NCBI GenBank assembly: GCA_017857175.1
Contig: JAFMDS010000003.1
Location: forward strand, 4,223-68,222
Origin: Candidatus Nanopelagicales bacterium
GTDB taxonomy: Bacteria > Actinomycetota > Actinomycetes > S36-B12
Reading direction: 5' to 3'
DNA length: 64,000 nucleotides
Numbering within the stretch: the first letter of the stretch is position 1; every line of letters starts with the position of its first letter. Of this stretch, positions 40,318-59,391 are shown piece after piece. The position numbers were made by a program, and so were the translations under genes. The notes under the pieces are model-generated. The model searched no databases, had not been told where the DNA came from, and saw only the letters and a program-made list of their open reading frames with translations.

Positions 40318-40345
40318 CTTCCAATATTGGTGAGTGCGACGAAAG

Positions 40346-41401
40346 TTACTTTCTTTGCATTTTTGTGCGATAGGCCATGACATCTTCTAATGAAGAAGAC
40401 GTGTCCCGAGCTTCGTAGCTAGTAGGTAAATAGATAGTAGACGGCTTAACGCCACCAATTTGATCCAAAATCATGGTTGCAGCGGCCCGGCCCATGGCTT
40501 CGGCATCTCTAGAGACAGCACTAATTCTCGGTCGCAATATGCGGAGCCAAGGAAGGTCGTCAACCACGACCAAAGCTACGTCTCGACCTGGCCGAATCCC
40601 TAACTCGGAGAAAGATTCCAGTACTCCAATCGTTGCCTGCACACCGCCTGACAAAATTGCCGTGGGTCTCTTTGCGGGATTCCCTGTCATGACTGCCGTT
40701 GTCTCTTTACGGGCAAATGCCGCAGAAAATGCTCCGGTGATCTCGAATGACTTTTTCATGGCTTCTGGCGAAGTCATTAATCCTTCAAGGAAACCCTTGA
40801 CCCGCTCTCTAGTTGGGCGAACATCGGGTGAACCCGTGACGAGCACCATGCTTGTATGCCCCAAATTCACGAGATCATTCGTGGCTGCTTTTATCCCCGT
40901 GACGTGGTCAAAGAGAGTCCTGCCAATGTCTAGGTTGTCGAGATCCCGATCGATGAGGACAACAGGTTTATCGTATGCAGACACAATTTTGCGGAGTTTG
41001 GGAGTTGAGTCGACGACAGTAGAAAGAAGTAGGCCATCAACTCGTCGTTGCTTGAGCATGGTCATTCGTTCAATTTCCTGAGTCTGGCTTCCACCACCAT
41101 TCATTACTAAAAGTGTGTATCCAGACGAGTTAAGCACTGACTCAAGTCCTTCAATTACATCGCTAAAAAATGGAGTGGCGAAGTCACGCACAACGTAACC
41201 GATGAGTCGACTCGAACCTCGACGAAGCGACTGCGCAACTGGATCGGGTGAGTAGCCCAATTCGCGGGCCGCATCTTCAACCCGCCGCTTCATGTCGATA
41301 CTGACGTCAGGGTGATTACTGAGAACGCGGGATACAGATGAGACGGCGACCCCAGCCCTCGTTGCAACATCGTGAATCGTCACCTGGCGACTTTTGGTCA
41401 C
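40346..41401 (-). CDS. LacI family transcriptional regulator
   Basis: TIHDVATRAGVAVSSVSRVLS HTH, YSPDPVAQSL hinge and a periplasmic-binding-like domain. Confidence 0.96.
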   Translation of the reverse strand: MTKSRQVTIHDVATRAGVAVSSVSRVLSNHPDVSIDMKRRVEDAARELGYSPDPVAQSLRRGSSRLIGYVVRDFATPFFSDVIEGLESVLNSSGYTLLVMNGGGSQTQEIERMTMLKQRRVDGLLLSTVVDSTPKLRKIVSAYDKPVVLIDRDLDNLDIGRTLFDHVTGIKAATNDLVNLGHTSMVLVTGSPDVRPTRERVKGFLEGLMTSPEAMKKSFEITGAFSAAFARKETTAVMTGNPAKRPTAILSGGVQATIGVLESFSELGIRPGRDVALVVVDDLPWLRILRPRISAVSRDAEAMGRAAATMILDQIGGVKPSTIYLPTSYEARDTSSSLEDVMAYRTKMQRK

Positions 41402-41514
41402 GATTTCCCTCGCTTTGCTCTTTATTTTTTGTGGTGCTCATGGGCACTGTGTGCGGAGACTACCAAGTGACACGGAGGTAGGTTTCGAATCAGCAGAACT
41501 CACGGTCAAACTAC

Positions 41515-41528
41515 TGGAAACGATACCA
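41515..41528. promoter_or_regulatory. LacI-type operator, copy 1
   Basis: TGGAAACGATACCA between the divergent lacI and enolase genes. Confidence 0.75.
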
Positions 41529-41611
41529 ACAATAGATGCTATGGTGCACAATACAGACATCATTATTGGTCACGCAAATGTCCATCGGACGTACCTCTGA
41601 GGAGTGAGTGA

Positions 41612-42739
41612 ATGAAAATCGCGTCAATTGATCCAATCCCTGTTGCGTATCCCGAGCCTAATGACTTTAACGCGACGCGTTATCTGTGCCTCGTCAAGAT
41701 CACCACGGACGATGGAGTGGTTGGTTGGGGTGAATCCATTACCCAATTCCCAGAGGCAAATGCACCCGTTGCCGCACTGATCGACGGCCTCGCGGAATAT
41801 GTTATTGGTCAGGATCCAGTCCATACCGAAAAGATTTGGCGAGACTTAAAATCCCGCACTTGGTGGTACGGATACCGGGGCGGCCTAGCTTCTTATGCAA
41901 TCTCGGCGATTGATATCGCATTGTGGGACATAAAGGGGAAGGTCCTCGGTCGAAGCGTCCTCGATCTTTTGGGAGGGCCTGTGCATGAACGCTTGCCCGC
42001 TATCGCGTCCTCACATGCTCACTATGAATCAATCCCTCGAATGGCTGAAGAAGCTGTTGAATGGCTATCGACTGGCATGCAGGGCATGAAAGTAGGATTT
42101 GGCAAACGTGGCGACGCACACCTGGGATACGAACACAATCGGGACGTTGAGTACATGCGATCTATGCGGGAAGCAATCGGATCGGATAAAAAAATTATGA
42201 TTGATTGCGGAATCAATGTGAAATGGGATGTGGCCACAGCGGTGAAACGTGTGAGGGCATTCGATGAATACAACTTAGAGTGGATTGAGGAACCACTGGG
42301 TGCATGGGATCCAGAAGGATATGCAACGCTCCGCTCAAAAACGGAGTCATTAATCGCTTATGGAGAACGCGAATGGAACCTGAGTGGATTTGAGAATGTT
42401 CTGGCGACAGGTAGTTGTGATGTTCTCGGCGTCGATCCAGGACGAGCTGAGGGAATTACGGGGTTCAAGAAAGTAACAGATAGATGTGAGTTTTACGGAC
42501 GACAGGCAAATGCGCATGCTTGGTCAAGTGCCATTGTTAGTGCTGCCAGCGTTGCAATAAGTTTTAGTACAACAAGCAGCAAACTATTTGAATTCAAACC
42601 CCTACGAAATCCCATGCAACATGAATTAGTTTCTAATCCCCTCACTCACACAGATGGCTGGCTCTATCCTCCAACGGGTCTCCCAGGCCTTGGTATTGAG
42701 ATCAATGAAGATATTGTTGACCGATACCGAGTGAATTAA
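41612..42739 (+). CDS. Mandelate racemase-subgroup enolase (probable acid-sugar dehydratase)
   Basis: IDIALWDIKGK, metal ligands in MID, WIEEP and GERE, His-Asp dyad (VDP, AHAW), PGLGIE. Confidence 0.92.
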   Translation: MKIASIDPIPVAYPEPNDFNATRYLCLVKITTDDGVVGWGESITQFPEANAPVAALIDGLAEYVIGQDPVHTEKIWRDLKSRTWWYGYRGGLASYAISAIDIALWDIKGKVLGRSVLDLLGGPVHERLPAIASSHAHYESIPRMAEEAVEWLSTGMQGMKVGFGKRGDAHLGYEHNRDVEYMRSMREAIGSDKKIMIDCGINVKWDVATAVKRVRAFDEYNLEWIEEPLGAWDPEGYATLRSKTESLIAYGEREWNLSGFENVLATGSCDVLGVDPGRAEGITGFKKVTDRCEFYGRQANAHAWSSAIVSAASVAISFSTTSSKLFEFKPLRNPMQHELVSNPLTHTDGWLYPPTGLPGLGIEINEDIVDRYRVN

Positions 42740-42748
42740 GTCCAAAGA

Positions 42749-43999
42749 ATGTCGTACAACCCTGGTTCTGTTGATCCACTAAGAATTATGGTCAACTATC
42801 AAGTAAGTGAATTATCAAACGTGGAAATTGAGGCAGTAACTTTTTTACTTGCCGATTTTTTGTCTACGACTAGCGCGTATCTTTATGGCAAGAATTCCTT
42901 GGATTATGCTAATCTACGTGGCTCTGAACTTGCGGCCTATCTAGCCATTGCATCATCAAATGGCGATATGGATGATGTGGACTGGGGAGAGGTACATCAC
43001 CCCGGATCAGTAATTCTGCCTGCCGTCTTGGCGGTCGGAATTGAGAGGCATTCCAGTTCAGATCAGATTCAGCGCGCCATTCAGGCTGGCTATCAAAGTG
43101 CCGCGATTTTCAGTGGAATCATGTCCTCTGAGATTAGGCAAAAATGGCATGCAACATCAATGGCAGGCGCTGTAGGGGCAACACACGCAATAGCGGAACT
43201 AATTGGTCTCACGGCCAATCAGGCATATGCAGCGCTGAGCTTGACATGTGCGAATATTGGCGGGCTTGCGCAGGCAGGTATTGAGAGAAACGGTGCTGCG
43301 CAATTCAATCGTGGGGCAGCTGCGTCTCTGAGTGTCATTGCCGCCAGGGCTGCGTTGATGGATATCCCACATCTTCCGGGTTCATTTACCTCACTCATGC
43401 TTGCGTGGGGTATCGACCCTGACTTAGCAGGCATTGAGGCAGAAGCAAAATCGCAGCAGGCCCTTGGAATTCAGGGCGCATCGCTTCGGTTACTCCCTGT
43501 TTCAGGCTATATGCAAGCCGCAGTGCATGCCGTTGTTTCTGTGCTCATGCGTAGCAGTGGCTTCTCGAGTCTACAGATTTCAGTTGCCCCTTCCACTTAT
43601 CGGCTTACTGTGACGGGTCAGTCCCCATACAACTGGGTCGATGACTACTGGTGGGATTTGCCATTAATGGTGAATCACCTGTTACAAGGGGCCAATGCTT
43701 TTTCGAGGCGGATACCTGTCCTAAACGGAGGAACTCAGTTGAGTGTTGAATTTTTAGAGGATTCCAGTTTGGCTCCCAATGAAGCTCGCCTGCAGTACAG
43801 AAATTCCTCAGGTCAAATTGAATTACACAATTTTGTTGCTCCGGGTGGTTTGCCGCTTGACGAAACTACAAGGAATTTATGGGATCAAAAGTGTTCGCTC
43901 TGGTTAGGTGTTTCTCCAGAAAGAAATCTTGCAGCAGCCCAGGCGATCATGAGTAATGGTCTTCAAGGAAAGAATCTTGCGGAACTATTTAGCATTTAA
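42749..43999 (+). CDS. MmgE/PrpD family protein (divergent)
   Basis: DMDDVDWGEVHHPGSVILPAVLA and WHATSMAG motifs. Confidence 0.75.
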   Translation: MSYNPGSVDPLRIMVNYQVSELSNVEIEAVTFLLADFLSTTSAYLYGKNSLDYANLRGSELAAYLAIASSNGDMDDVDWGEVHHPGSVILPAVLAVGIERHSSSDQIQRAIQAGYQSAAIFSGIMSSEIRQKWHATSMAGAVGATHAIAELIGLTANQAYAALSLTCANIGGLAQAGIERNGAAQFNRGAAASLSVIAARAALMDIPHLPGSFTSLMLAWGIDPDLAGIEAEAKSQQALGIQGASLRLLPVSGYMQAAVHAVVSVLMRSSGFSSLQISVAPSTYRLTVTGQSPYNWVDDYWWDLPLMVNHLLQGANAFSRRIPVLNGGTQLSVEFLEDSSLAPNEARLQYRNSSGQIELHNFVAPGGLPLDETTRNLWDQKCSLWLGVSPERNLAAAQAIMSNGLQGKNLAELFSI

Positions 44000-45069
44000 G
44001 AGTTATTGAGTAAATCCAGCAGAAAATGCTCGACATCTGCGGTACTCGCGGTACCGCGCAGGTCTTTCGTTCGAGTTTCCGGATTAAGCAGAGAGACCTC
44101 TATTGCATTCATCAGTGAGGTTGCAGCCTTGTTCAAATTCAAGTGCTCGAGCATCATGACTCCAGACCAAATTGTGGCTATTGGGTTAGCAATTCCCGAG
44201 CCCGCGATATCCGGTGCCGATCCATGTACAGGTTCAAACATGGAAGGCATGTTTGGATCAGCACTTAAATTAGCGGATGCTGCAATTCCTAAACTTCCAA
44301 CTGTGGCTGAACCCAGATCAGAGAGAATGTCACCATAAAGGTTAGAGGCAACGACAACATCAAATTCCTGTGGCCGCGTTACGAATTCCGCGGCTGCAGC
44401 ATCGATGAGCTTCTTTGATAATTCAATATCGGGGTATTCTTGCATTGTCTCTGCAACAACTTCGTCCCAGAAAGTCATTGTGTGAATAATTCCATTTGAT
44501 TTTGTAACCGAGGTTACTTTGTGCCGACGATTTCTTGCGGCTTCAGCGGCAAATCGGGTTATTCGTTCGATTCCAAAACGGGTAAAAATATCATTCTGCA
44601 CAGCAAACTCACGACATGTTCCTTTAAATGAGCGTCCACCAGACTCGGAGTACTCCCCTTCAGTGTTTTCGCGAACGATCAACATATTGATGTGTTCACC
44701 ATCTGGTAGTTGCACATTTGGACGAACGCCATCAAACTGGCGTACAGGACGAAGGTTGACAAATAGGTCGAATTCCCTGCGGATAGGCATGAGTAATCCC
44801 CAAAGGGTGACATCATCAGGGACTTCAGGATCACCGATCGCACCAAGAAATATGCAATCGAATTCGGAAAGTTGAGCGATACCGTCAGTTGGCATCATCT
44901 GACCGTTCACTTTGAAGTAGTCGGATCCCCAGTCAAGCCAAGTCCAATCAATGGAAAGACCGGCCTGGTGCAAAGCAGCGTCCAACACTTTCACGGCCAC
45001 GGGTATGACTTCCTTGCCAATTCCGTCACCCGGAATGACGGCGACCCTTTTTGCGCTATTCAATGACAT
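43996..45069 (-). CDS. Tartrate dehydrogenase/decarboxylase / D-malate dehydrogenase (IDH/IMDH family)
   Basis: PGDGIGKEV, WGLLMPIRREF..VNLRP, RENTEGEYS, TKSNG and EPVHGSAPDIAG motifs. Confidence 0.88.
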   Translation of the reverse strand: MSLNSAKRVAVIPGDGIGKEVIPVAVKVLDAALHQAGLSIDWTWLDWGSDYFKVNGQMMPTDGIAQLSEFDCIFLGAIGDPEVPDDVTLWGLLMPIRREFDLFVNLRPVRQFDGVRPNVQLPDGEHINMLIVRENTEGEYSESGGRSFKGTCREFAVQNDIFTRFGIERITRFAAEAARNRRHKVTSVTKSNGIIHTMTFWDEVVAETMQEYPDIELSKKLIDAAAAEFVTRPQEFDVVVASNLYGDILSDLGSATVGSLGIAASANLSADPNMPSMFEPVHGSAPDIAGSGIANPIATIWSGVMMLEHLNLNKAATSLMNAIEVSLLNPETRTKDLRGTASTADVEHFLLDLLNNS

Positions 45070-45133
45070 TCCTCAAGGATTAGTCGGTTGGAGCCGAGAG
45101 TGGCCGATATTCGCACAGATTAGTACATGATAC

Positions 45134-45147
45134 CGGTAACGTTTCCA
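45134..45147. promoter_or_regulatory. LacI-type operator, copy 2
   Basis: CGGTAACGTTTCCA upstream of the tartrate dehydrogenase-like gene. Confidence 0.8.
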
Positions 45148-45154
45148 CCACCTA

Positions 45155-45952
45155 TCAATACATCAATTGACCACCAGAGATATTAAGGAGCGCCCCGGTC
45201 ATGTAGCTGGAGGCATCTGAAGCCAGGAATAAAACCGCACCCGCCATTTCCTCGGGTGCACCCAATCTGCCCATGGGCACCATGGAAATGAATGCGGAAA
45301 CCGCGGAAGGACCTTGACCACCATGCAACATTGTCGTGTCCACTCCGCCAGGTGCAACAACATTCACCCGCACTCCGTCAGCGGCAAATGAGCGGGCTAG
45401 CCCTCGTGTCATAGACACGACACCCCCTTTGGCAGCTGCGTAGACGACTGAGCCACCGAATCCGCCCGTCCACCATCCTTGCGAAGAAAAGTTCACAATT
45501 GACCCTTTGGTTCCCTGCCTCACAAAAACATCACGTGCGGTTCGATTGAGAAAAAAAGATGCTTTCAAGTTAACGGAATGTTGAATATCCCAATCCTCTT
45601 CAGTGATTTCATCAATTGTGTCTCGTCGAATTAGCACAGCTGCAAGATGTGCGACCGCGGCCATGGGCGCACCAAGAGTTGCATGGCGAAAAATCTCCTG
45701 ATGTGAACTCAAATCTGCCAAGTCACATACAACTTTTACGTGCCCCGAACCAGGAAGTTGATTAAGTGTGTCATCAAGTGACTCGGCAGTCAGATCAACA
45801 GCGACAACTAATGCGCCCGCCTCCGCAAAGGCCACCGCTGTCGCTCTACCGATTTCACCTCCAGCACCAGTTACGACAACATGATTCCCTGCCAATCCTG
45901 AATCATTGCGCCACGTTGGAATTTCCTCAGAGTTAAGTATGGACTTAGTCAT
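45155..45952 (-). CDS. Short-chain dehydrogenase/reductase
   Basis: TGAGGEIG, YAAAK and VNVVAPG motifs; start MTKS after a GAGGAG RBS. Confidence 0.93.
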   Translation of the reverse strand: MTKSILNSEEIPTWRNDSGLAGNHVVVTGAGGEIGRATAVAFAEAGALVVAVDLTAESLDDTLNQLPGSGHVKVVCDLADLSSHQEIFRHATLGAPMAAVAHLAAVLIRRDTIDEITEEDWDIQHSVNLKASFFLNRTARDVFVRQGTKGSIVNFSSQGWWTGGFGGSVVYAAAKGGVVSMTRGLARSFAADGVRVNVVAPGGVDTTMLHGGQGPSAVSAFISMVPMGRLGAPEEMAGAVLFLASDASSYMTGALLNISGGQLMY

Positions 45953-45986
45953 GCGTGATCTCCTCAGATCGGATTCATTATGCAGT

Positions 45987-47213
45987 CTATTGAGTGAGTA
46001 ACATGAGGCTTTTTGGCTTTCTGACAGCAAGCAAATTTCCATATTGCGTATCCCCGACTAGGCGCAATTCAGGGAATCGATTCGCTATATTTCGCAATGC
46101 AATTTGCGTTTCAAGGCGTGCGAGGGGTGCACCTAGGCAAAAGTGAGGTCCGTGTCCAAATGACACATTTCCAGCATCTTTGCGATGTGAATTGAAGTGA
46201 TTTGGGGTAGTGAATCGCCTAGGGTCTCGATTTGCCGCACCAATAAGGAAAAATACGTAATCCCCCTGAATTATCTCAACTCCATTAACTTCGATGTTCT
46301 TACGAGCTATTCGGGTTTGTCGCTGAATTGAATTATCGAAGCGGAGTACTTCTTCGGTTAGTTTCTCAGTGATAGTCTGATCGTCAACCAATTCCGAATA
46401 GGACTCACGTTGCTGAAGTAGAATGTTAAGCGCATTACCAATCAAGCCTTCGGTGGTTTCAAAGCCAGCAAAAAATAGCTGGATCACGAGTGCGATCAGC
46501 TCTTCGCGTGAGAATGATCCATCTTCGTTTTCGATAACGATTAGATCGCTGAGCAGGTCGTGAGTTGGATGTTGCTCCTTTTCTTTGATCAAGGATTCCA
46601 GGTACTCAGATGCTTCTATTACAGCTTCATTTGCTGATCGCGCAGCTTCAGGTGTCATAACTCCTGCAGATAGTAGATTCACTATTCCTTCAGCCCACCG
46701 GTTTAGGTCACTTAACCTAGAAAATGGGATGCCAAGTAATTTAGAGATCACCATGGCAGGGAGTTTGAACGAAAACATTTGAATAAGATCAAACTGGCGA
46801 TCTGTGGGCCACTGGTCTAGCAAGTCATTGACCAGAGTTTCGATATCGGATTTCATTGAACCAATTCGACGAGCGGTGAATGCCTTACTCACCAGTCGGC
46901 GAAGGCGGGTGTGATCCGGTGCGTCTCGAAAAGACATCATCGCCTCAAGGCAGTCGAATACCGCTCGGTTCTGTACGCGTACATCCGGATCCAGCAGGCT
47001 CGCTGCCTGAGCGATTCGACCTCCTGCACCGAAGTCCATGGACTGAAGACCCTGCTGTACGGAATCAAAGGGAGTTACCAGCCAGCCATTCACCTTCTGA
47101 CTCCACACCACAGGGGATTCGGACAATAATCGTTCGTAGAATGGGTATGGATTATGAAAGAAATCCGGTGTTAAGAAATCATCTTCTGAAATCCTGGAAA
47201 CGATACTAGCCAT
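45987..47213 (-). CDS. Cytochrome P450
   Basis: DAPDHTRLRR, AGFETT I-helix, EEVLR ExxR motif and FGHGPHFCLG heme motif. Confidence 0.97.
   Translation of the reverse strand: MASIVSRISEDDFLTPDFFHNPYPFYERLLSESPVVWSQKVNGWLVTPFDSVQQGLQSMDFGAGGRIAQAASLLDPDVRVQNRAVFDCLEAMMSFRDAPDHTRLRRLVSKAFTARRIGSMKSDIETLVNDLLDQWPTDRQFDLIQMFSFKLPAMVISKLLGIPFSRLSDLNRWAEGIVNLLSAGVMTPEAARSANEAVIEASEYLESLIKEKEQHPTHDLLSDLIVIENEDGSFSREELIALVIQLFFAGFETTEGLIGNALNILLQQRESYSELVDDQTITEKLTEEVLRFDNSIQRQTRIARKNIEVNGVEIIQGDYVFFLIGAANRDPRRFTTPNHFNSHRKDAGNVSFGHGPHFCLGAPLARLETQIALRNIANRFPELRLVGDTQYGNLLAVRKPKSLMLLTQ
47195..47208. promoter_or_regulatory. LacI-type operator, copy 3 (within the first codons of the leaderless P450 gene)
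   Basis: TGGAAACGATACTA; a TAGTGT -10 lies 6 nt upstream of the P450 ATG. Confidence 0.65.
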
Positions 47214-47353
47214 GGCGATACACTAATGGATAAGCAACGTTGGCGAACGATTTTCAGGGTATAGGTGAGGAACTCATGTACCTGAGTATGTGGGATTGCA
47301 CCATGTCACCATTGCCAGTGCAAATCAGTTGCGGTGCGGAGCAATAGACCGCT

Positions 47354-48190
47354 ATGTGGCCGATTTTTTTCGGAGCTCTAGCTGCGGTGAGCACGGCAAT
47401 TGGTCTGATGCTCACCAAAAGCATTTCCCAACGCATGCCCGCCTGGCAAGTAGTAGGGCCGCTGTTTCTTCTCAACACTTTACTCGTTTTACCTGCCATT
47501 CCCATTGGTCCTGCTTGGAAAGTTCCGTCATTTGAGATTTTCCTTCTTCATGCATTCTCCACAATTTTATTAATCGCAGGCGCTGCTTGTGTCTTTCTAC
47601 TGATAACACGGGGTCGTGCTTCGAGCGTCTCTGTTGGACGTGCCGTGTCGCCTGTTGCGGTGCTTATCGCGGGACCAATTCTTTTGGGGAATACGGAATC
47701 ACGAGCGCTCATAATTGGCGCGATTATCGTCATGCTTGGAGCATTGCTCCCTCTACGAAAAGGATTCGAAGGAATCTCCTCGGGCGTGACGCTTGGGATA
47801 TTGATTTTCCTTGGTTTCGCAGAAGGCACTGTCACTGTCTTAACAGCAATGTTGGCATTACAAGGTGTAGGCCTGCCCGAAATCTATATTGTACGTACAC
47901 TGATAGCAGGAATATTTTTCACGCTTTTAGTGCTCCCTCGCGATTTGAAGTTGAAGGACCTTAAACCATTAACCGTCCGAGCAGTTTTTGTTACGGGTGG
48001 GTATTTCTTCACAATTCTTGGAGTTCGTGACGGTGATGTTGTCCCAGTTCAGGCTCTGTGGGCTACCGCACCAATGCTGGTGATTTTATTGGAGTGGATC
48101 AGACTTCGGGAAAGACCGCAGATCGGGGCCATGGTTGGTGCCGTTGTTGTGGCAATCGGCGTTCTAGTGTTACTGAGTGCGGCGAATTAG
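47354..48190 (+). CDS. DMT/EamA family transporter
   Basis: About 10 TM segments in two repeats; P..V.I...ILLG and LRERP..GAMVG patterns. Confidence 0.8.
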   Translation: MWPIFFGALAAVSTAIGLMLTKSISQRMPAWQVVGPLFLLNTLLVLPAIPIGPAWKVPSFEIFLLHAFSTILLIAGAACVFLLITRGRASSVSVGRAVSPVAVLIAGPILLGNTESRALIIGAIIVMLGALLPLRKGFEGISSGVTLGILIFLGFAEGTVTVLTAMLALQGVGLPEIYIVRTLIAGIFFTLLVLPRDLKLKDLKPLTVRAVFVTGGYFFTILGVRDGDVVPVQALWATAPMLVILLEWIRLRERPQIGAMVGAVVVAIGVLVLLSAAN

Positions 48191-48245
48191 TCTTGAGAAG
48201 GATCTGCATGCTCAATGGAAATATTGGTACACAGAGGGAAACCAA

Positions 48246-49574: not shown

Positions 49575-49668
49575 GGCTCACTGAGGGTTGACCGAGTCCA
49601 CTGACTGCTAATTCATTGAGTGGGTTTTGAAAACAGTCTTGACGATCAGGGCACCTATCGGTGTAGAA

Positions 49669-49682
49669 TGGTAACGTTTCCA
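49669..49682. promoter_or_regulatory. LacI-type operator, copy 4
   Basis: TGGTAACGTTTCCA directly after a TAGAAT -10 (TTGACG at 49639-49644). Confidence 0.85.
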
Positions 49683-49700
49683 GAAATCAGAAGGGCTTTC

Positions 49701-50837: not shown

Positions 50838-50884
50838 TTTTCATCTAGCCCCATGTAAACCCAATCTCGAGAGGAATACAGCAA

Positions 50885-51898: not shown

Positions 51899-52911
51899 GC
51901 ACTGTCCTGAAGTCAACGGAAACTGCCATTCAAAGGCGTGAGGCTCTCGCTCGGGGGGCCAAGCAGCAATTTGAGCGAATGATCGAAATCCGAACTATCG
52001 AGGCGGTTGTCAACGATCTTTTTGCTGCTGGAAGTATTCACGGAACGACACATCTTTGTGTTGGCCAGGAAGCACTTGATGTTGGAATCGCGCTAGCACT
52101 GCGTCCCACAGATATGGTTACCGCGACCTATCGCAGTCACGGAATTGCTCTGGCACTAGGAATGACTCCACTCGAAGTAATGGGTGAGATCATGGGTAAA
52201 GATGTTGGTTGTACCGATGGCGTTGGCGGATCAATGCATTTGTGTGACATGTCAGTTGGCTTGTTGCCAACCTTTGCAATTGTTGGTGCGGGATATCCGG
52301 TAGCTGCAGGCGCGGCATTAGCTTTTCAAACACTTGGACAAGACAGCGTGGCTCTTGCAATGGCAGGCGACGGGTCCACAAATATCGGCGCATTCCATGA
52401 GTCACTCAATTTGGCAGCAATATGGAAGTTACCTGTAATTTTTGTGGTGGATAACAATGTCTATGGCGAATACTCGCGCATTGACACGACAACCCCAATA
52501 GAAGACTTGTATCTCCGCGCGGCGTCCTTTGACATTCCTGGCATAGTCGTTGATGGAATGGATGTCACAGCTGTTGAGGCAGTTGTTAGACAGGCTGCAG
52601 ATCGCGCTCGCCGGTGTGAAGGGCCCACTCTGATAGAAGCCAAGACCTATCGATTTTCGGGGCATTCACGTGCGGATCAAGCCCCGTATCGCCCAGTTGG
52701 CGAACTCGAATCTTGGCAGCAGCGGGACCCAATCAAACTTATGTCCGAAAAGTTGGTGAATGAAGGTGTCCTGACTTCTGATCAGGTCCTGCAAATCACG
52801 GAGTCGACCAGAGAATCAATATCGGAATTAGTCGCAGGGCTTGAGGCGCTGCCAGAGCCAGAATACTCGGCAATGTTTAACAATGTTTGGACAACAGAGA
52901 AGGTGACGTAG
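51895..52911 (+). CDS. 2-oxoacid/acetoin dehydrogenase E1 alpha subunit (TPP-dependent)
   Basis: HLCVGQEA, GGSMH, TPP motif GDG...NN and TYRFSGHS; ATGA overlap with E1 beta. Confidence 0.95.
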   Translation: MSTVLKSTETAIQRREALARGAKQQFERMIEIRTIEAVVNDLFAAGSIHGTTHLCVGQEALDVGIALALRPTDMVTATYRSHGIALALGMTPLEVMGEIMGKDVGCTDGVGGSMHLCDMSVGLLPTFAIVGAGYPVAAGAALAFQTLGQDSVALAMAGDGSTNIGAFHESLNLAAIWKLPVIFVVDNNVYGEYSRIDTTTPIEDLYLRAASFDIPGIVVDGMDVTAVEAVVRQAADRARRCEGPTLIEAKTYRFSGHSRADQAPYRPVGELESWQQRDPIKLMSEKLVNEGVLTSDQVLQITESTRESISELVAGLEALPEPEYSAMFNNVWTTEKVT

Positions 52912-52915
52912 GGCG

Positions 52916-53152
52916 ATGAAGACTTCAGTTAAAATGCCACGCGTCGCCGACACGGTTGACGAAGTCGTCATTGCCGAATGGCTTGTTGAAGTAGGAGCCA
53001 GAGTTGAAATTGGCGACGTACTCATGAATGTAGAGACCGACAAAGCGGTCGTAGAAGTCCCCAGTCCAGTTTCCGGGGTGCTCCTCGCGCAACTCGTAGC
53101 TGTTGACGACGAAGTGGTCACCGGAACCCCGATCGCCCAGTTAGAAACATGA
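52916..53152 (+). CDS. Stand-alone lipoyl-domain carrier protein
   Basis: 78 aa with VETDKAVVEVPSP lipoyl-lysine motif; no E2 catalytic domain follows. Confidence 0.92.
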   Translation: MKTSVKMPRVADTVDEVVIAEWLVEVGARVEIGDVLMNVETDKAVVEVPSPVSGVLLAQLVAVDDEVVTGTPIAQLET

Positions 53153-53177
53153 TTCCTTAACGAACTAGGAGGTTGCC

Positions 53178-54077
53178 ATGAATGTCAAGCCGTCAATCAT
53201 TGACACACATGTTCATTTTTTCGACATGAGGCAAAAGGAGTGGGATCTTGAGTGGTCGTGGCTAGCCCCTCAATCGGATCATCCGATTCTGGGAAACATT
53301 GACGCTATTAAGTCTCAGAGTTTCGACCTCACTGCCCTCGAAGGTGAGAGCAGGTTTGCAGGTGTCACAGGCTTTGTTCACGTACAAGCGGCAATTGGGT
53401 CTAGGGATCCGGTCACAGAAACCAAGTGGGTCGATCACATGGCCATGGCTTCATCGATTCCGGTTCAAATAGTGGGTCACGTTGATCTTGCAACTTCGCA
53501 AGGACCGCGTCAGATCGAACAGCATCTCGAGGCATCGGCAAGATTTGCGGGTGTTCGGGATTTCTCCCTGGAACCTGCCTTAGCCTCGGGTGACTTTTCT
53601 GCGTATGGACCATCATTCAAAGTTCTAACGGATGAAAACTTGGTCCTGGACTTGGATTGCGAGTTCCAAAATATGCCAGCAGCAAAATTATTGGCTGGCC
53701 GGAATCCTGACATGAATATTGTTTTAGAACATATCGGATTTCCACGCCGGCGCGATGACCAGTATTTCTCTGATTGGTCATTGGGAATCAAAACACTTGC
53801 AGAAGTACCTAATGTGATGTGCAAAATATCGGGGCTCGGGATGACCGATCCGCGGTTCACGGCTAAGTCATTACAGCCTTGGTTGGAAGTCTGCCTAGAT
53901 GCTTTTGGTCCAGATCGGCTTGTCATCGGTTCCAACTGGCCAATTGACCGCTTGTACAGTTCCTATGACGCGATTATCGGGCTTTATCGTGAATTCTTCA
54001 GCCAACTCTCGATCGATGACCAAGAAAAAATCTTCAATTTAAATACAAAGAAGGTATACCGCTTCAATAACGAGTGA
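53178..54077 (+). CDS. Amidohydrolase-2 sugar lactonase (COG3618, L-fuconolactonase-like)
   Basis: IDTHVH, VHVQAA, VLEHIG.P, KISG and FGPDRL..GSNWP motifs. Confidence 0.85.
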   Translation: MNVKPSIIDTHVHFFDMRQKEWDLEWSWLAPQSDHPILGNIDAIKSQSFDLTALEGESRFAGVTGFVHVQAAIGSRDPVTETKWVDHMAMASSIPVQIVGHVDLATSQGPRQIEQHLEASARFAGVRDFSLEPALASGDFSAYGPSFKVLTDENLVLDLDCEFQNMPAAKLLAGRNPDMNIVLEHIGFPRRRDDQYFSDWSLGIKTLAEVPNVMCKISGLGMTDPRFTAKSLQPWLEVCLDAFGPDRLVIGSNWPIDRLYSSYDAIIGLYREFFSQLSIDDQEKIFNLNTKKVYRFNNE

Positions 54078-54095
54078 ATGTATCTCTAATGCAGG

Positions 54096-55148
54096 CTAGC
54101 GTTCGACCCATGCGCCCTGTCGGGCACTACGATAAATCAAATCGAGAGCTTCAACTGTTCGTGCACCTAACTCAAGAGGCGCATCGTTGACGACTGGTTT
54201 TCCGCGAGTGAGGTCAAGGATCACCTCAACAGGACCAAAGCAGTCGTAATGACCTGCATTGGGTGGAAGTTCAACGTCAACGGTCGAACCGTCTGGTCGA
54301 TACAACCAAACCTGATCACGCTCAACATCGATTCGGAATTGGCCCTCAGACCCGTAAGCGGAAATACACAATTGGTGCCGGTTATTGGCTGCACCCATAT
54401 GGTTGGATGCACCGAATGCGGTACCAATAGAACCATCTTGATACTTGAGAGTGATGGCGTCGTGTAATTCAACTGGCGCGTTCATGGAGTTAAGCATGAG
54501 GGCAAATGCACCTGTTACTCGCTGGTCCAGTAGCCAGAGGCTCATGCCAAAAGCATGTGAAAGTTGAGCTTGGGCGTAACCACCGCCAGATAGTAGAGGG
54601 TTAGTCCACGTAGCTTGTTCTGGAGTTGTGTCTGCGGAGGCTTCGGGGTAGGCGCCAGTATTTGAAAGCAATTCTCGCGTTTGTGACGCCATAACAATAG
54701 ACACTGCTTCAATTTGGCCAATCCCGATATCAGTCATGAGTGACTTTGCCTTCTTCAGCATGGGGCTGAAATTCCAACCGAATGCACAGGTGACACTTCG
54801 GCCGTTCTTCTCCGCAAGTTCAACAAGTTCCCACGCATGATCGGGATTGAGAGTGACAGGCTTTTCAATCAGGACGTTAGCCCCCGCTTCGAGTGCGGCC
54901 TTTGCGTGTTCGTAATGCAACCCAGATGGACTCGCCACGAGAACTACATCGACACTCTCAGAGAGTACATCGACGTAATTTTCACTAGCAACCTTGAATC
55001 CAAAATTCGCCCGGATCCGCTCGAGAGCTTCCTTGCCATGGCGGGAAACACCTACAAACTCGACGTCTTCGTGCTTCGCAAAAGTGGGTAGATGTGATGA
55101 CACCGCCCAAGAACCTCCACCTATCACACCGAATCTAATTGGACTCAT
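54096..55148 (-). CDS. Gfo/Idh/MocA family oxidoreductase
   Basis: GVIGGGSWA, ASPSGLH, VLIEKP and SGGG....QLSH motifs. Confidence 0.92.
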   Translation of the reverse strand: MSPIRFGVIGGGSWAVSSHLPTFAKHEDVEFVGVSRHGKEALERIRANFGFKVASENYVDVLSESVDVVLVASPSGLHYEHAKAALEAGANVLIEKPVTLNPDHAWELVELAEKNGRSVTCAFGWNFSPMLKKAKSLMTDIGIGQIEAVSIVMASQTRELLSNTGAYPEASADTTPEQATWTNPLLSGGGYAQAQLSHAFGMSLWLLDQRVTGAFALMLNSMNAPVELHDAITLKYQDGSIGTAFGASNHMGAANNRHQLCISAYGSEGQFRIDVERDQVWLYRPDGSTVDVELPPNAGHYDCFGPVEVILDLTRGKPVVNDAPLELGARTVEALDLIYRSARQGAWVER

Positions 55149-55198
55149 GGAATATCTCCTTAATCAGTACGCAGTTTTACAATGGATTTCAGCAGATT

Positions 55199-56209
55199 TC
55201 AAGATGGGCTTAGTCGTTCTCTGAGGCGGTCGAAGGAAACAGCAATAATCAACAAGATTCCTGTCGCTATGGATTGCCAGAAGGATTGAACATTAAGCAA
55301 GGTAAGACCTGTGCTCAAAACTTGAATGATCATCAAGCCCAGGAAAGTTCCGATGATTGTGCCCCTACCACCATTGAGACTGGCTCCGCCAAGAACTATC
55401 GCAGTGACCACTAGGAGTTCATAACCGCGGGCATTATTTGGAGAGGCTGCTCCAAGTTGCGACACCAAGATAAGACCCGCTACCGAAGCGGCTAGTCCAG
55501 AAAGGATGAACGCAACAAAGATCACGCGACGACTGGGGATTCCGACGAGTCGAGCGGCCACTGGATTTGCGCCAATGGCGTACACCTGCCGACCGTAAAC
55601 CGTGTATTTCAAGACGATGAATCCTGCGATGAGTGTTATCCCAAAGATAATAACTGGCATCGGGATGTTGAGAAACGGTCTTGCGGTTCCGATGTAGCCG
55701 AAGTCGCGAATCAATACTGTTTGGCCATCGCCAATCAGTTGTCCAATTCCGAAGAAGGTGGCCAGGCCACCAAGAGTGACAATCAGACTGTTAACACCGA
55801 CAACGGTCACAAAGAATCCATTGATGACGCCGACGAGGAGACCTACAGCTAACCCAATGGCAACTGCCGACCCTAATGCCATACTTTGAGCCAGGGTGGC
55901 GGTTACCATGCCGCACATCGCGGCTGCAGATGCAACCGACAGGTCAACTTGACCAGCTACGAGCAAGATCGTTCCAGGCACAGCCATGATTCCAATGACA
56001 GCGATGCTTGTGAGCATGTTCAGCATGTTGTTAGTCGTGAAAAATACGGGGCTAGTCAAAGTGAACAAAAGGATCAGCGCGCCAAGCACCATAACTAGTG
56101 CGAGGGTTTCGGGGAGTTGACGCCTTGGTGGTCTCGATAATCCAAGAGTTGACGCTACAGAAACTTCGTCCCTGACTGCGGGGACTGTTCCCTCATCCAT
56201 TGTGTTCAT
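55199..56209 (-). CDS. Sugar ABC transporter permease (RbsC-like)
   Basis: GQVDLSV, YGRQVYAIGANPVAARLVGI and AIVLGGASLNGGRG motifs. Confidence 0.95.
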   Translation of the reverse strand: MNTMDEGTVPAVRDEVSVASTLGLSRPPRRQLPETLALVMVLGALILLFTLTSPVFFTTNNMLNMLTSIAVIGIMAVPGTILLVAGQVDLSVASAAAMCGMVTATLAQSMALGSAVAIGLAVGLLVGVINGFFVTVVGVNSLIVTLGGLATFFGIGQLIGDGQTVLIRDFGYIGTARPFLNIPMPVIIFGITLIAGFIVLKYTVYGRQVYAIGANPVAARLVGIPSRRVIFVAFILSGLAASVAGLILVSQLGAASPNNARGYELLVVTAIVLGGASLNGGRGTIIGTFLGLMIIQVLSTGLTLLNVQSFWQSIATGILLIIAVSFDRLRERLSPS

Positions 56210-56270
56210 GTGGCGCCTCTCCTTGTTGCAGTAAACGTGTGAATTGAATTCGTTAAATTAATTTCTGTGC

Positions 56271-57785
56271 TCATCCGCCAGACGCGTCTGTTAAAGCGAC
56301 CACTGAAACTTCGTGGTAGTCCAGATTGCTCGTGATTTTTCCTGCGGACATCACAACGGCTCGATCGGCAACCTGGACTACTTCTTCATAATCGGAGGTC
56401 GAGATCAATATCCCGACACCTTCGTCTGCAAGTTGTCGGATAACTGCATAAATTTCCTGTCGCGCACCTACGTCTACGCCCCGTGTTGGCTCCAGAAGAA
56501 CCAGAACCTTTGAGCCGGCATTAAGCCAGCGAGCGAGAAGCACCTTCTGTTGGTTTCCACCAGAGAGGAATGAAATTGCTTTATCTGCCCCACTTTCGGA
56601 AACCCTGATTCGAAGAGCCGTTCGCCATTTTTCAAATGAAGTGCGCTCTTTCTTGCCGTTCGCCCAGAAGGTGCCACCGAGAACACCAGACCAAAACGGA
56701 GCGACAAGGTTCATGCCACTAGAGAGTCCAAGAAAGGCCCCTTCGCGCTTGCGATCAGCGGGTAAAAGCCCAACGCCCAAGCCGATCGCGTTTCGTGGAG
56801 AACGTGCAGGAGGACCCCCATTGATGAAAAGCTCGCCTGCGGTTATTTTCTGAACTCCGAACGCAGCTTCAGCAACCTCAGAGATCCCGGAGCCAACTTT
56901 CCCGTAGAGTGCAACGACTTCGCCGGGCAAGATCACAAGGTTGGCATCCTCGAATGAGCCAGCAGATGCGGCGTCGCGGAGTTCGATCAGTGGTTCTGCG
57001 TTAGCCGGAATCAGGTTCATCTTTGGACGCCCGAATTCATCTATTTTGGAGCCAACCATTGCCTCAATAAGTATAGATCGGTCAATGTTTCGAGCATCAC
57101 TAGAGGACAACGCGAGATTACCGTCACGTAGTACAACTACATCGTCGGCAACTCGGCGTAATTCGTCGAGTCGATGCGTGATGTAGATCATTGCGGTACC
57201 TTTGTCGCGAAGGCGATCGATGAATTCGAATAAAGTGTCGACTTCATCGCCTGAAAGAGCCGCCGTGGGTTCATCAAGAACCAAAATTGCGGCTTTATCT
57301 GATAAAGCTCGCGCAATTTCAATGACCTGTCGCTCACCTACTCTCAGGGACGACATGAGAGCATTCGGATCGATATCGACTTCAAGATCATTGAGGATTC
57401 GTTGGGCTTCACGGCGCATTTGGCGCCATTGGACGAAACCTTTCTTGGATATTAATCGACCTAAGAAGATATTTTCGGCAACACTTAATGTGCCCGCATC
57501 GTTAATCTCTTGGTAAATCATTCTGATTCCCAAGTTTCCTGCGGTTATAGGCGTCAATTTTGAAAAAGTTTGATTAGCCACGGAGATTTCCCCGGAATCG
57601 GGTTCGTAATCCCCACTAATGATTTTTACAAGAGTTGATTTGCCTGCGCCATTTTCGCCAAGTAGTGCGAGAACGCGTCCCGAGGTGGCGTCGAGGTCAA
57701 TACCGTGCAAGACCTCGACACCACCAAAGGATTTCTTAATCCCTCGGACAGATAGTGCAATTTCCTTCCGAGAGTTTTCTAGCAT
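56271..57785 (-). CDS. Sugar ABC transporter ATP-binding protein (RbsA-like, double NBD)
   Basis: GENGAGKST, LDEPT, LSGGNQQK and EPTRGVDVGA motifs. Confidence 0.96.
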   Translation of the reverse strand: MLENSRKEIALSVRGIKKSFGGVEVLHGIDLDATSGRVLALLGENGAGKSTLVKIISGDYEPDSGEISVANQTFSKLTPITAGNLGIRMIYQEINDAGTLSVAENIFLGRLISKKGFVQWRQMRREAQRILNDLEVDIDPNALMSSLRVGERQVIEIARALSDKAAILVLDEPTAALSGDEVDTLFEFIDRLRDKGTAMIYITHRLDELRRVADDVVVLRDGNLALSSSDARNIDRSILIEAMVGSKIDEFGRPKMNLIPANAEPLIELRDAASAGSFEDANLVILPGEVVALYGKVGSGISEVAEAAFGVQKITAGELFINGGPPARSPRNAIGLGVGLLPADRKREGAFLGLSSGMNLVAPFWSGVLGGTFWANGKKERTSFEKWRTALRIRVSESGADKAISFLSGGNQQKVLLARWLNAGSKVLVLLEPTRGVDVGARQEIYAVIRQLADEGVGILISTSDYEEVVQVADRAVVMSAGKITSNLDYHEVSVVALTDASGG

Positions 57786-57791
57786 GCTTAA

Positions 57792-58910
57792 TCAGCATCC
57801 GCTCACATCGTAGAAGTCACCGATATTATTTTCGGTGACGTAGAGGTGGTCCACGAGCAGTTCCTTGGGAATGGTTACGCCATTGACTGCATCAATGAGG
57901 TAGGGAATTCCGATTTCGCCGTAACGCTCTGGGAAGAACGCTGCGCTACCTGCCCATTGACCTCCTGAAGCAATTTCGCAATGTGAGATCTTGTCGACTC
58001 CCATACCGGAAACGGCGATCTGGTCTTCGCGGCCAGCGGTACGTGCAGCAGCGAGTGCAGCACTGATGCCGTCATCGTTGATGGCAACAACTGCGATGCG
58101 ACTTGCATCTGGGAGTGCTGTCAGAGTGTCTGTGACAGCCGTGAGGGCAATGTCTTGACGCCCGGCATCCAGTTCGCGGACCTGGGTAGTCGCTTCATCG
58201 ATGGGACCACACACAGACTCAAAGCCCTCGCGCTGTCCATCCATGCGGGCGTCGTTAACGGAACCAACCCCGAAGTCTTCAAGGGAAATCCAAGCATCAA
58301 TCTTGCAATCCCAATTTTCCTTGACCCAGTTGCCGAGGCCTTCGCCACCGATAAACCCTGCACGAGCGTTATTGGCGCCCATGAAAGCTGTCTGGCAATC
58401 ACCTTGAGCAATGTCGATTGCAATTACTGGTACACCCTGTGGGCCTGCATCGCAGATCTCCTGGCCAGCGTCAGCAACAGGCTGGAAGTTCATGTATCCC
58501 TGAACACCTTGAGCCTCGAAGTTCTTAACACACGCCAAAGCTGTTGCTGCATCGAGCTTGCTATCGCAGAAGATCAGTGTCGCACCCGCGATTTCAGCCT
58601 GCTCTTTGAATCCGTCAGATACTGACTTACTGAATGGAATTGAATCGTCAAGGGCGATGATTCCTAGCGTTACGCCCTCACCACTGCCTGGCTCTGCTCC
58701 ACGAAATTCAACGAATTCACCCGAGGCAACTTCTGCGGTTTCTTCGCTGGTTTCCTCGACGACGACTTCTTCGGAAGGCGATTCTTCCACCGTTGCAGTC
58801 GCTGCTGCATCAGTTGATTCTGCGTCATCACTGCTGCTGCAAGCTGAAAGAGTCAGCGCGGCAGCGGCTACAAGAGAAGCGATTTGAGCCCCTCGTCTAA
58901 ATCGAATCAT
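57792..58910 (-). CDS. Sugar ABC transporter substrate-binding lipoprotein
   Basis: Lipobox LSAC, acidic linker and a Peripla_BP_4-like domain; start MIRF after GGAGG. Confidence 0.92.
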   Translation of the reverse strand: MIRFRRGAQIASLVAAAALTLSACSSSDDAESTDAAATATVEESPSEEVVVEETSEETAEVASGEFVEFRGAEPGSGEGVTLGIIALDDSIPFSKSVSDGFKEQAEIAGATLIFCDSKLDAATALACVKNFEAQGVQGYMNFQPVADAGQEICDAGPQGVPVIAIDIAQGDCQTAFMGANNARAGFIGGEGLGNWVKENWDCKIDAWISLEDFGVGSVNDARMDGQREGFESVCGPIDEATTQVRELDAGRQDIALTAVTDTLTALPDASRIAVVAINDDGISAALAAARTAGREDQIAVSGMGVDKISHCEIASGGQWAGSAAFFPERYGEIGIPYLIDAVNGVTIPKELLVDHLYVTENNIGDFYDVSGC

Positions 58911-58934
58911 ATGATTTCCTCCGAGTTCATGTAT

Positions 58935-58948
58935 TGGAAAGGTTTCCA
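58935..58948. promoter_or_regulatory. LacI-type operator, copy 5
   Basis: TGGAAAGGTTTCCA, 25 nt upstream of the SBP start; TTGACA on the minus strand at 58974-58979. Confidence 0.75.
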
Positions 58949-59014
58949 GAATCATTGCCCAAGGTTTCGGATGTGTCAAGGATCTTTGTAAAATTGTTAT
59001 TCAGCCAAACAGGT

Positions 59015-59362
59015 TCAACTGGCTTCAGCTGCGTTAGCGGCTATTTTTTCATTCATGTGCCACACCTGTTCGGCCATAAAGAGATTGCCAGATTCATCTG
59101 TGAGGGACTTGATGACATCGGTAAACCAGATCGCCCACTCAGTATTGGCAGTCGAATTTGCCATTGAGCCGAGGCATGACTCAATCGTTGGGTGACATTC
59201 CGCGTACCCGAACACCTGATTTCCACGACGAAATAGACTGTAGTTTCTCCACCCACCCGCCCATAGATCTCCCAGTAGTTGAGGCCACACTTCTTCGTGT
59301 CGTCGTTCGTACTCCTCTATTTTGTCTTCATAAATCTCCATAATGAATAGCAAACGCTCCAT
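59015..59362 (-). CDS. rhaM: L-rhamnose mutarotase family protein
   Basis: EYERRHEEVWP..L...G.RNYSLF motif; start MERL after GGAGG. Confidence 0.85.
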   Translation of the reverse strand: MERLLFIMEIYEDKIEEYERRHEEVWPQLLGDLWAGGWRNYSLFRRGNQVFGYAECHPTIESCLGSMANSTANTEWAIWFTDVIKSLTDESGNLFMAEQVWHMNEKIAANAAEAS

Positions 59363-59377
59363 GCAATTCCTCCAAAT

Positions 59378-59391
59378 CGGTAACGTTTCCG
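59378..59391. promoter_or_regulatory. LacI-type operator, copy 6
   Basis: CGGTAACGTTTCCG upstream of the mutarotase gene. Confidence 0.8.

Follow-up and report, generated by a model that had tools for sequence, protein, structure and literature searches.

Non-phosphorylative routes of sugar catabolism end in an aldolase, in a dehydratase plus a dehydrogenase, or in a short-chain dehydrogenase/reductase (SDR) plus a hydrolase, according to PMC11199699, PMC10444878 and PMC9795676. Here we describe a gene island of an aquatic actinobacterium, Candidatus Nanopelagicales bacterium (assembly GCA_017857175.1), located in a window of 64,000 nucleotides (contig JAFMDS010000003.1, positions 4,223 to 68,222; the whole stretch of DNA that was analyzed), in which a front end of this type is followed by a thiamine diphosphate (ThDP)-dependent E1 and a free-standing lipoyl carrier. 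The closest described counterparts are routes 1 and 3 for L-fucose and L-rhamnose (PMC11199699), which have in common with the island a mutarotase, a sugar dehydrogenase, a COG3618-type lactonase, an enolase-superfamily dehydratase and an SDR, clustered with a transporter and a regulator; the gene set of the upper steps matches the order given there, that is, mutarotase, dehydrogenase, lactonase, dehydratase. The island differs from these routes in having the E1 and lipoyl carrier for the aldolase or FAH-family hydrolase, two enolases (MR1 and MR2, both of the mandelate racemase subgroup), enzymes that score under the family cut-offs, and downstream diacid enzymes. The island represents a genuine catabolic system that is conserved and mobile and whose genes appear to be under common control; it probably carries out non-phosphorylative sugar oxidation in a new form, and no characterized counterpart was found.

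The island contains 18 intact open reading frames (ORFs) at 40346-59362 of the window (the lipoyl carrier is missed by ORF listing at 80 aa), all assigned to Pfam families and amounting to 16 functions if the three subunits of the ATP-binding cassette (ABC) importer are counted as one; the 16 genes listed in an earlier note made from the sequence alone are all there, in the families named. That note also pointed to the lack of a sugar kinase, isomerase, aldolase and FAH-family hydrolase. BLAST searches against the island at E≤1e-5 produced no match for FAH hydrolases (3 queries), DHDPS-type aldolases (2), FGGY kinases (2), class II aldolases, DeoC or fucose-isomerase-like proteins, and PfkB kinases and KDPG aldolases, which were outside the BLAST queries, are covered by the assignment of all 18 ORFs to other Pfam families. 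The absence holds for this copy and not for the system at large: among 93 actinobacterial stretches, overlapping by genome, that were searched by BLAST for ending enzymes, 16 encode a CitE-type or CitE-like C-C lyase and 10 a fucose/arabinose-isomerase-like protein (one query), alongside 24 with CaiB, 11 with an E2 catalytic domain, 8 with an aldehyde dehydrogenase (nearly all without sugar genes), 2 with DHDPS and none with FAH. Only one island enzyme, a tartrate/D-malate dehydrogenase-like protein (TDH), passes an NCBIfam cut-off (TIGR02089, 477 bits versus 470.4; NF006048 gives 444.5, below 501), and by sequence it falls in the decarboxylating tartrate/D-malate dehydrogenase family; the E1 beta subunit is just under its cut-off and the remaining proteins are well under theirs. 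Judged by these scores and the published routes, the genes do not map one-to-one on a characterized pathway, as the note had supposed.

Examination of the E1 suggests how the ending differs from known complexes. Like acetoin dehydrogenase AcoABCL and the heterotetrameric pyruvate and branched-chain ketoacid dehydrogenase complexes, it is an alpha2beta2 ThDP enzyme with the ThDP motif, the catalytic histidines and a lipoyl domain; unlike them, it combines a separate E1alpha clade and a sugar-acid context with the absence of an E2 core, an E3-binding domain and an E3. The 78-aa carrier has neither an E3-binding nor a catalytic domain; E2s and an E3 fragment sit in other operons of the host, which also has a lipoate ligase/transferase-family gene, the E3 fragment being at a contig end. 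The E1alpha scores 325 bits with TIGR03182, below the PdhA cut-off of 394, and the PDB sequence search found no close relative for it. In a 48-row tree with a midpoint root, the cluster E1alphas group into a single 34-row clade (100/98) that includes neither PdhA nor the rows in acetoin-dehydrogenase context (AcoA-context, labeled by their neighbors). Within this clade, five rows with a full E2 lie in a group of 8, three rows with a split E2 (a lipoyl domain plus a separate catalytic gene of 212-218 aa) form a group of their own, and the E1alpha from the window belongs to a group of 22 (100/99) where the free carrier is the only E2-like partner seen; in three closed chromosomes of this lipoyl-only group, a split-E2 query produced no E2 catalytic match at 1e-32. 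Under the midpoint root, these groups may reflect a stepwise loss of E2 inside this clade, from the full protein through the split form to the lipoyl domain alone. Where PdhA has Met and a rhizobial/clostridial group has Lys, all 34 rows contain Arg268; they also have Thr or Ser instead of the pocket Phe, and these residues would fit a polar, anionic substrate. The split E2 genes are located at L073:4488-5144, L096:1426-2082 and L097:14669 onwards. In the other E1 of the host (G000:C31:42071-47103), the alpha and beta subunits are fused; this E1 has its own E2, forms a long branch in the tree and is encoded next to a glyoxalase-fold gene and an FAD oxidoreductase gene. E1 alpha and beta subunits with a lipoyl domain and without a normal E2 are reportedly encoded in the oadh2 cluster of Haloferax volcanii and by QncN/QncL of quinocarcin synthesis, where they are said to serve amino-acid-derived acids or natural-product extender units; going by these descriptions rather than by sequence, the island is set apart in that its module closes a sugar catabolic regulon.

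The place of the module within the gene set is best seen by comparison with plasmids of Chelativorans, Shinella and Jannaschia. These carry relatives of the upper-step genes (MR1, 42-45% identity; the Gfo/Idh/MocA dehydrogenase, hereafter Gfo, 29-34%; RhaM) together with genes for FAH, DHDPS-family, acetoacetate-decarboxylase-family (ADC) or 2-hydroxyacid dehydrogenase proteins, and no E1 in the stretch shown. The comparison supports the view that the E1 and lipoyl carrier stand where these alphaproteobacterial cousins have FAH, DHDPS-family or ADC genes; the Jannaschia cluster is to be regarded as an analogue because its enolases are only 25-28% identical to those of the island. The earlier proposal that oxidative decarboxylation replaces the usual ending is thus upheld with regard to position, and the 2-keto-3-deoxy acid that it named as the E1 substrate stays conjectural. 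It is highly improbable that the island encodes a known L-rhamnose/L-fucose-like route with divergent enzymes, an aldolase or FAH hydrolase encoded elsewhere and the E1 as unrelated cargo: the host does have one FAH-family and two DHDPS-family genes elsewhere, but they lie in other contexts; the mutarotase, the lactonase and the dehydratases score far under the cut-offs; and E1 is under the same operator type as the rest of the island and is present in all 21 related clusters that were hand-picked for richness and then extended. Furthermore, in two Planktophila-type genomes, a separate operon for rhamnose isomerase, kinase and aldolase, with a mutarotase of its own, adjoins the cluster, which also argues against plain L-rhamnose as the substrate.

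A search with MR2 retrieved 73 loci, nearly all from Actinomycetota, including Planktophila, Nanopelagicus, Microbacteriaceae, Nakamurella, Conexibacter, Gaiella, Acidimicrobiia, Actinomadura and Amycolatopsis. Counted within 10 kb of MR2, on contigs many of which are shorter, these loci contain LacI (41), E1beta (33), E1alpha (32), SDR (24), binding protein, ATPase and mutarotase (22 each), permease (21), lipoyl carrier (20), Gfo (19), lactonase (18), MR1 (11), P450 (7), PrpD (6) and TDH (4); the ORFs were clustered with a composition filter against shadow frames, a crude device that misses frameshifted genes. The gene order is reshuffled among related loci, and in three of the 21 picked clusters, each from a different other genome, every island gene except the ligase recurs (17 of 18). 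Co-occurrence in other genomes, on which the earlier note had staked its case, is thus documented across the 73 loci and in searches of 50 whole genomes. These 50, drawn from the 73 MR2 genomes, are kin and many are incomplete; MR1 was found in 32 and Gfo in 30, and E1alpha in 44 at 1e-70 (41 at 2e-86 or better). All 30 Gfo-positive genomes also have MR1, all 18 MR1-negative ones lack Gfo, and 11 of these 18 retain the cluster-type E1alpha alongside MR2; seven genomes have MR2 without a cluster-type E1. The system is therefore split into two modules, an upper one (ABC importer, mutarotase, Gfo and MR1) and a lower one (MR2, E1 and lipoyl carrier), the latter being also found without the former. 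An MR2 orthologue is present in 2 of 60 relatives and none of 21 genomes of the same genus, and Gfo at 1e-80 in none of 400 sampled genomes of the phylum, with 5 candidates scored per genome; the cluster is rare and patchy, which does not imply absence elsewhere.

This modularity bears on the possibility that the system acts as a funnel through which several related rare sugars or sugar acids are broken down, in place of one linear pathway, with the substrates of MR1 and MR2 converging on E1, and P450, PrpD, TDH and ligase handling side groups or products. Such a funnel, which is compatible with either of the E1 chemistries considered below, would account for the 11 of 50 genomes with the lower module only, for larger islands in which Gfo has 3-4 paralogues and MR2-like genes and ABC sets occur twice each, and for the swapping of accessory sets in other copies (esterases, ceramidase-like, creatininase-like, M81 amidases, Ord-like amine dehydrogenase). 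Nevertheless, it appears unlikely, given that the island copy relies on a single importer, repressor and operator type, and that 17 of the 18 genes occur together in three other genomes. The expanded islands L089-L092 (genomes G061 and G085) also encode amidase-like proteins and an adjoining 2-oxoacid:ferredoxin oxidoreductase pair. RidA-family genes adjoin the lower module in 5 of the 73 loci, which fits a 2-oxo acid feed. In Amycolatopsis (L029, L030 and L052), MR2 and a LacI with the same operator type occur without sugar genes or cluster-type E1, next to a cyclase, an 894-aa FAD monooxygenase-hydrolase fusion, an intradiol dioxygenase and Fe-ADH. Ten of the 73 loci encode a 370-aa protein, not represented in the window, without a Pfam family and with invariant Cys/His motifs of metal-binding appearance (L002:6222-7334); its predicted fold (pLDDT 88.8) has only unnamed Atlas neighbors and no Foldseek match at E≤0.001.

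The two enolases appear to differ in role. The nearest structures to MR1, at about 30% identity, are the eliminases AtGCI (galactarolactone cycloisomerase, 4GGB) and DauB of Zobellia (5OLC), whose reactions remove a ring oxygen at C3 or C4 of the sugar acid (PMC5698469). MR1 shares with them the Lys base, acidic residues at all three metal-ligand positions, and the acid His together with the Trp that follows it (Lys160, Asp198, Glu226, Glu252, His302 and Trp304, numbered by hand count), and differs in Gly158, which replaces the first Lys of the Lys-x-Lys pair, and in residues of the capping domain. In the upper module, MR1 is likely to act as the dehydratase or eliminase of an aldonate or lactone. 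The closest structures to MR2 are 3NO1, 3MSY and 4H83, an enolase of a marine actinobacterium (515 bits; Z 52-55; root-mean-square deviation 1.2-1.4 Å over 354-366 residues), which has the same Gln at the third metal-ligand site; the PDB titles name no function, and the literature search found no mention of this entry. MR2 contains Lys176/Lys178, Asp207, Glu233, Gln260, Asp283 and His310, along with invariant Arg41, Arg106, Arg108 and Arg109; Gln260 at the third metal-ligand position and the Arg-rich cap suggest a diacid substrate. Distant MR2 relatives adjoin genes for TctC tricarboxylate receptors and for fumarase- or PEP-mutase-family lyases. L-talarate/galactarate dehydratase was considered for MR2 and rejected (NF047820, 174 bits, below 500; Gln rather than an acid at the third position), as was L-rhamnonate dehydratase for both (MR1 121 and MR2 96 bits versus a cut-off of 393); neither enolase is listed with the NCBIfam fuconate dehydratase model at 1e-20.

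At the front end, the binding protein, aligned to ribose-binding protein, retains some of the residues that we take to be ligand contacts, with two polar contacts changed to Gly or a small residue and to Phe. The mutarotase retains the catalytic Tyr and His and has lost the second Trp of the Trp-Trp pair; its TIGR02625 score (57.3 versus a cut-off of 99.6) is below that of the rhamnose/fucose type. Both sets of altered contacts would fit a sugar with fewer free hydroxyls. The putative lactonase has the Amidohydro_2 fold and scores 103.5 bits with NF052480 (cut-off 400). PDB sequence searches with the binding protein, Gfo, SDR, lactonase and mutarotase detected no close relatives. The nearest matches of Gfo, which are weak, are C3-type dehydrogenases. 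The core mutarotase (17 of the 21 picked clusters), with its intact catalytic residues, implies an anomeric centre and makes it quite improbable that the sugar-type ABC system serves a non-reducing substrate, such as a cyclitol, an anhydro-sugar, a lactone or an ascorbate-derived acid. In favor of such a substrate, anhydro-galactonate cycloisomerases are among the nearest characterized relatives of both MR1 and MR2, and other copies include xylose-isomerase-like TIM barrels and an apionate-lactonase-like gene. The latter (L021:8668-10605, 197 bits versus a cut-off of 750) follows an E1 module.

P450, PrpD, TDH, the DMT transporter and the ligase are accessory, as counted in the 21 picked clusters; the β-decarboxylating dehydrogenase, which the earlier note had made part of the defining ending, is found in 6 of them. 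The 21 PDB matches of the P450 at 1e-55 are all of CYP107/BioI type or unnamed. Sugar O-demethylating P450s of the CYP236A type are described with a linked ferredoxin/reductase; a redox partner is missing from the island, and a ferredoxin-reductase-type gene is encoded elsewhere in the genome. The sole other cluster with a similar ligase (42% identity) also has TDH and shows no CaiB, and the ligase likely stands in for the family III CoA-transferase (CaiB) of other copies. Diacid-handling genes recur in the system, as judged from CaiB, the CitE-like lyase, RipB/RipC-like scores, TDH and the neighbors of MR2 relatives. Other copies repeatedly contain relatives of CaiB, MaoC and CitE, which point to the itaconate/C5-dicarboxylate module Ict-Ich-Ccl (RipABC), as well as PrpD and glyoxalase-fold genes; in contrast to that module, all hidden Markov model scores are under the cut-off, none of the three is in the island, and CitE (52%) and MaoC (51%) are encoded elsewhere in the host genome.

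These features can be combined into a scheme, the substrate and all reactions of which we infer, and to which we give slightly less than an even chance. A modified aldose (likely deoxy, O-methyl or branched) would be imported by the ABC system, mutarotated and, without phosphorylation, oxidized at C1 by Gfo or SDR, with subsequent opening of the lactone; MR1 would perform β-elimination to a 2-keto-3-deoxy acid, and MR2 a second dehydration or an epimerization, probably on a diacid. E1 would then decarboxylate the 2-keto acid, shortening it by one carbon, and reductively acylate the lipoyl carrier. An E2 would not be needed for release of the acyl group, since acyl thioesters with a 4-hydroxy or 4-carboxy group can cyclize to a lactone or an anhydride, and the E3 of the host would reoxidize the carrier; succinyl- and glutaryl-type thioesters form cyclic anhydrides (PMC8116961), and lipoyl thioesters might, by analogy, do the same. 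The freed acid, of the malate, tartrate or citramalate type, would be disposed of by the β-decarboxylating dehydrogenase in the island copy or, alternatively, re-activated by the acyl-CoA ligase (the family III CoA-transferase elsewhere) for a CitE-type lyase; the P450 may strip a substituent such as an O-methyl group. The broader proposal of a fourth type of ending, in which an E2-free E1 and the 78-residue carrier shorten a sugar 2-keto acid, cyclization unloads the carrier, E2 has been lost stepwise and the system gives Planktophila and other aquatic actinobacteria access to a modified deoxy sugar for which no catabolism is known, is doubtful. Apiose, aceric acid, 4-O-methylglucuronate, 3-O-methylrhamnose, mycarose-type dideoxy sugars and N-acyl deoxyamino sugars were considered as substrates, none of them backed by a direct test.

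Several observations weigh against this scheme. No island gene clearly creates a second carboxyl from an aldose, and the characterized structural neighbors of MR2 are tied at Z ~45, with non-diacid enzymes among them. MR1 and MR2 cannot both be simple dehydratases at the same carboxyl end, and for this reason the order of MR1, SDR and MR2 can be drawn in more than one way. The nearest structures to the P450 include no named sugar demethylase, the swap of ligase for CaiB is based on two clusters, and the E2s of the host (contigs C31 and C81) could unload the carrier in trans. Finally, all 34 E1alphas of the clade contain Glu201, as do the AcoA-context E1s (Met in PdhA), which favors ketol cleavage. 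In an acetoin-dehydrogenase-like mechanism of this kind, SDR or Gfo would make a 4- or 5-keto-aldonate and E1 would cleave the ketol C-C bond, one fragment being oxidized onto the lipoyl carrier and the other leaving as an aldehyde. Malate, citramalate or tartrate skeletons, as substrates of MR2, PrpD, TDH and CitE, would then arise from a 2,6-dideoxy or 3-C/3-O-substituted sugar. The presence of two dehydrogenases in the core of the picked clusters, the C3-type relatives of Gfo and the polar contacts lost in the binding protein and mutarotase agree with this mechanism, which would also account for CoA re-activation despite a thioester-forming E1. We nonetheless hold it to be improbable, considering that the E1alpha clade does not group with the two AcoA-context rows, no AcoC, AcoX or butanediol dehydrogenase is found nearby, aldehyde dehydrogenase is not part of the core, and the strict pairing of MR1 with Gfo argues for early elimination to a 2-keto acid, as in the decarboxylation scheme.

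The island is supported as one LacI regulon by predicted operators. A LacI-type palindrome with a central CG matches the window nine times with at most one mismatch, compared to 2.36 ± 1.52 expected, and none of 100 shuffles reaches nine (the pattern was drawn by eye from the site at 41515, which makes that single site circular). Seven of the nine matches are inside the island, five of these at the heads of units (MR1, TDH, P450/DMT, MR2-E1 and ABC), in line with the LacI control that had been predicted. In 36 of the 73 related loci, a related palindrome lies between genes; its matches number 48 in intergenic and 17 in coding sequence, versus 3 in one mononucleotide shuffle, a weak control. 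Promoter-like sites are at chance in the window overall (13 versus 20.4 expected), and so are terminators (21 versus 18.4). An exact match to the operator pattern at 18381-18394, inside a murJ-like gene, is probably due to chance.

The island is present in only part of the population of this actinobacterium. A joint that connects positions 40299 and 59598 is present in contigs from three of the four public DNA runs (the fourth has a loose end at 59598) and in one of the four RNA-library runs, where 185 other bases take the place of the island and represent the empty allele. The contigs with the joint omit exactly the island genes, and the edges coincide with the ends of LacI and the mutarotase: the skipped stretch extends 46 bases beyond the LacI stop on one side and 236 bases beyond the mutarotase start on the other. 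In each of the four DNA runs, depth is lower in the island bins than in the flanking ones, which agrees with carriage by a fraction of the population, although depth gives no exact share. The GC content of the island is 0.494 versus 0.534 for the genome (2.0 Mb, 98% complete). The island lies about 37 kb from dnaA, flanked by a low-molecular-weight phosphatase gene and dnaB, and includes no integrase (Pfam) and no tRNA; given that its edges cut the 5' end of the phosphatase gene and the region upstream of dnaB, allele replacement by homologous recombination is suggested. The exact joint and the palindromes at the heads of transcription units show that the island genes are one unit. Contigs from the RNA libraries span the island in all four runs, but in two of these the coverage looks as flat as that of DNA, genes cannot be ranked by contig depth and there is no silent control, so that this coverage is not proof of transcription. 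Sequence of the host genome was detected in aquatic, estuary, marsh and seawater runs.

Features of the island, with positions in the window and the basis of each assignment
Feature	Position	Strand	Basis
Population-variable genomic island	40300..59597	no strand	19,298 bp; edges from the 40299->59598 joint
LacI-family repressor	40346..41401	-	PF00356 + PF00532; family in 41/73 loci
LacI-type palindrome ahead of MR1, pattern source	41515..41528	no strand	0 mismatches
MR1, mandelate-racemase-subgroup enolase, upper module	41612..42739	+	Pfam, alignment, PDB neighbors
Divergent MmgE/PrpD-family protein, accessory	42749..43999	+	PF03972 N-terminal domain only, 60 bits; 6/21 clusters
Tartrate/D-malate-type β-decarboxylating dehydrogenase (TDH), accessory	43996..45069	-	TIGR02089; 6/21 clusters
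LacI-type palindrome ahead of TDH gene	45134..45147	no strand	1 mismatch
SDR dehydrogenase, core (start inferred 45952)	45155..45952	-	Pfam; 20/21 clusters
Cytochrome P450, CYP107/BioI-like, accessory	45987..47213	-	Pfam and PDB search; 6/21 clusters
LacI-type palindrome over first P450 codons, divergent P450/DMT junction	47195..47208	no strand	1 mismatch
DMT/EamA transporter, accessory	47354..48190	+	PF00892; 9/21 clusters
Acyl-CoA ligase, rare accessory	48177..49574	+	PF00501; 1/21 other clusters, 42% identical
LacI-type palindrome ahead of MR2-E1beta-E1alpha-lipoyl-lactonase	49669..49682	no strand	0 mismatches
MR2, mandelate-racemase-subgroup enolase, lower module	49704..50837	+	ORF opens 49620, start inferred 49704
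ThDP-dependent E1 beta subunit	50885..51898	+	PF02779 + PF02780; NF006667 320.1 bits, cut-off 321
ThDP-dependent E1 alpha subunit, separate clade	51868..52911 (start inferred 51895)	+	PF00676; TIGR03182; tree
Free-standing 78-aa lipoyl carrier, lipoylation Lys43	52916..53152	+	PF00364, 64 bits
COG3618-type amidohydrolase, likely sugar lactonase	53178..54077	+	PF04909; nearest PDB 4DLF
Gfo/Idh/MocA dehydrogenase, upper module	54096..55148	-	Pfam; genome searches
Monosaccharide ABC permease	55199..56209	-	PF02653
Monosaccharide ABC ATPase, two ABC domains	56271..57785	-	Pfam, NCBIfam
Sugar-binding lipoprotein (start inferred 58910)	57792..58910	-	PF13407
LacI-type palindrome, ABC-Gfo unit	58935..58948	no strand	directly after best-scoring promoter-like site 58979-58951 (minus)
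RhaM-family mutarotase (start inferred 59362)	59015..59362	-	PF05336
Sixth LacI-type palindrome, ahead of mutarotase	59378..59391	no strand	by eye, two mismatches, outside pattern count

Several other features lie near the island. An inverted repeat at 59477-59497, just inside the right edge and upstream of dnaB, resembles two DnaA boxes. A 364-aa ORF after rplI (37078-38172) has no Pfam match at 0.001 and looks acetyltransferase-like by eye. After dnaB, outside the island (61115-63905), a class V aminotransferase (kynureninase/SufS-like) and a flavin monooxygenase are encoded, neither of which was found in the related loci.

A literature search, with most subscription journals and supplements outside its scope, found no paper describing such a system, and the accessible part of a review of oxidative pentose routes (PMC9795676) contains no thiamine, lipo- or decarboxyla- term. 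The repressor and the binding protein provide two handles on the ligand, and related clusters are present in the cultured strains Antiquaquibacter soli WY-16, Conexibacter arvalis DSM 23288 and Actinomadura sp. NBRC 104412. If the proposed scheme is true, the thiamine/lipoyl ending would be a new branch of non-phosphorylative sugar oxidation and a case of lipoate catalysis without an acyltransferase core, the structural-genomics enolase 3NO1/4H83 would gain a function, and the island would point to a dissolved carbon source for abundant aquatic actinobacteria.

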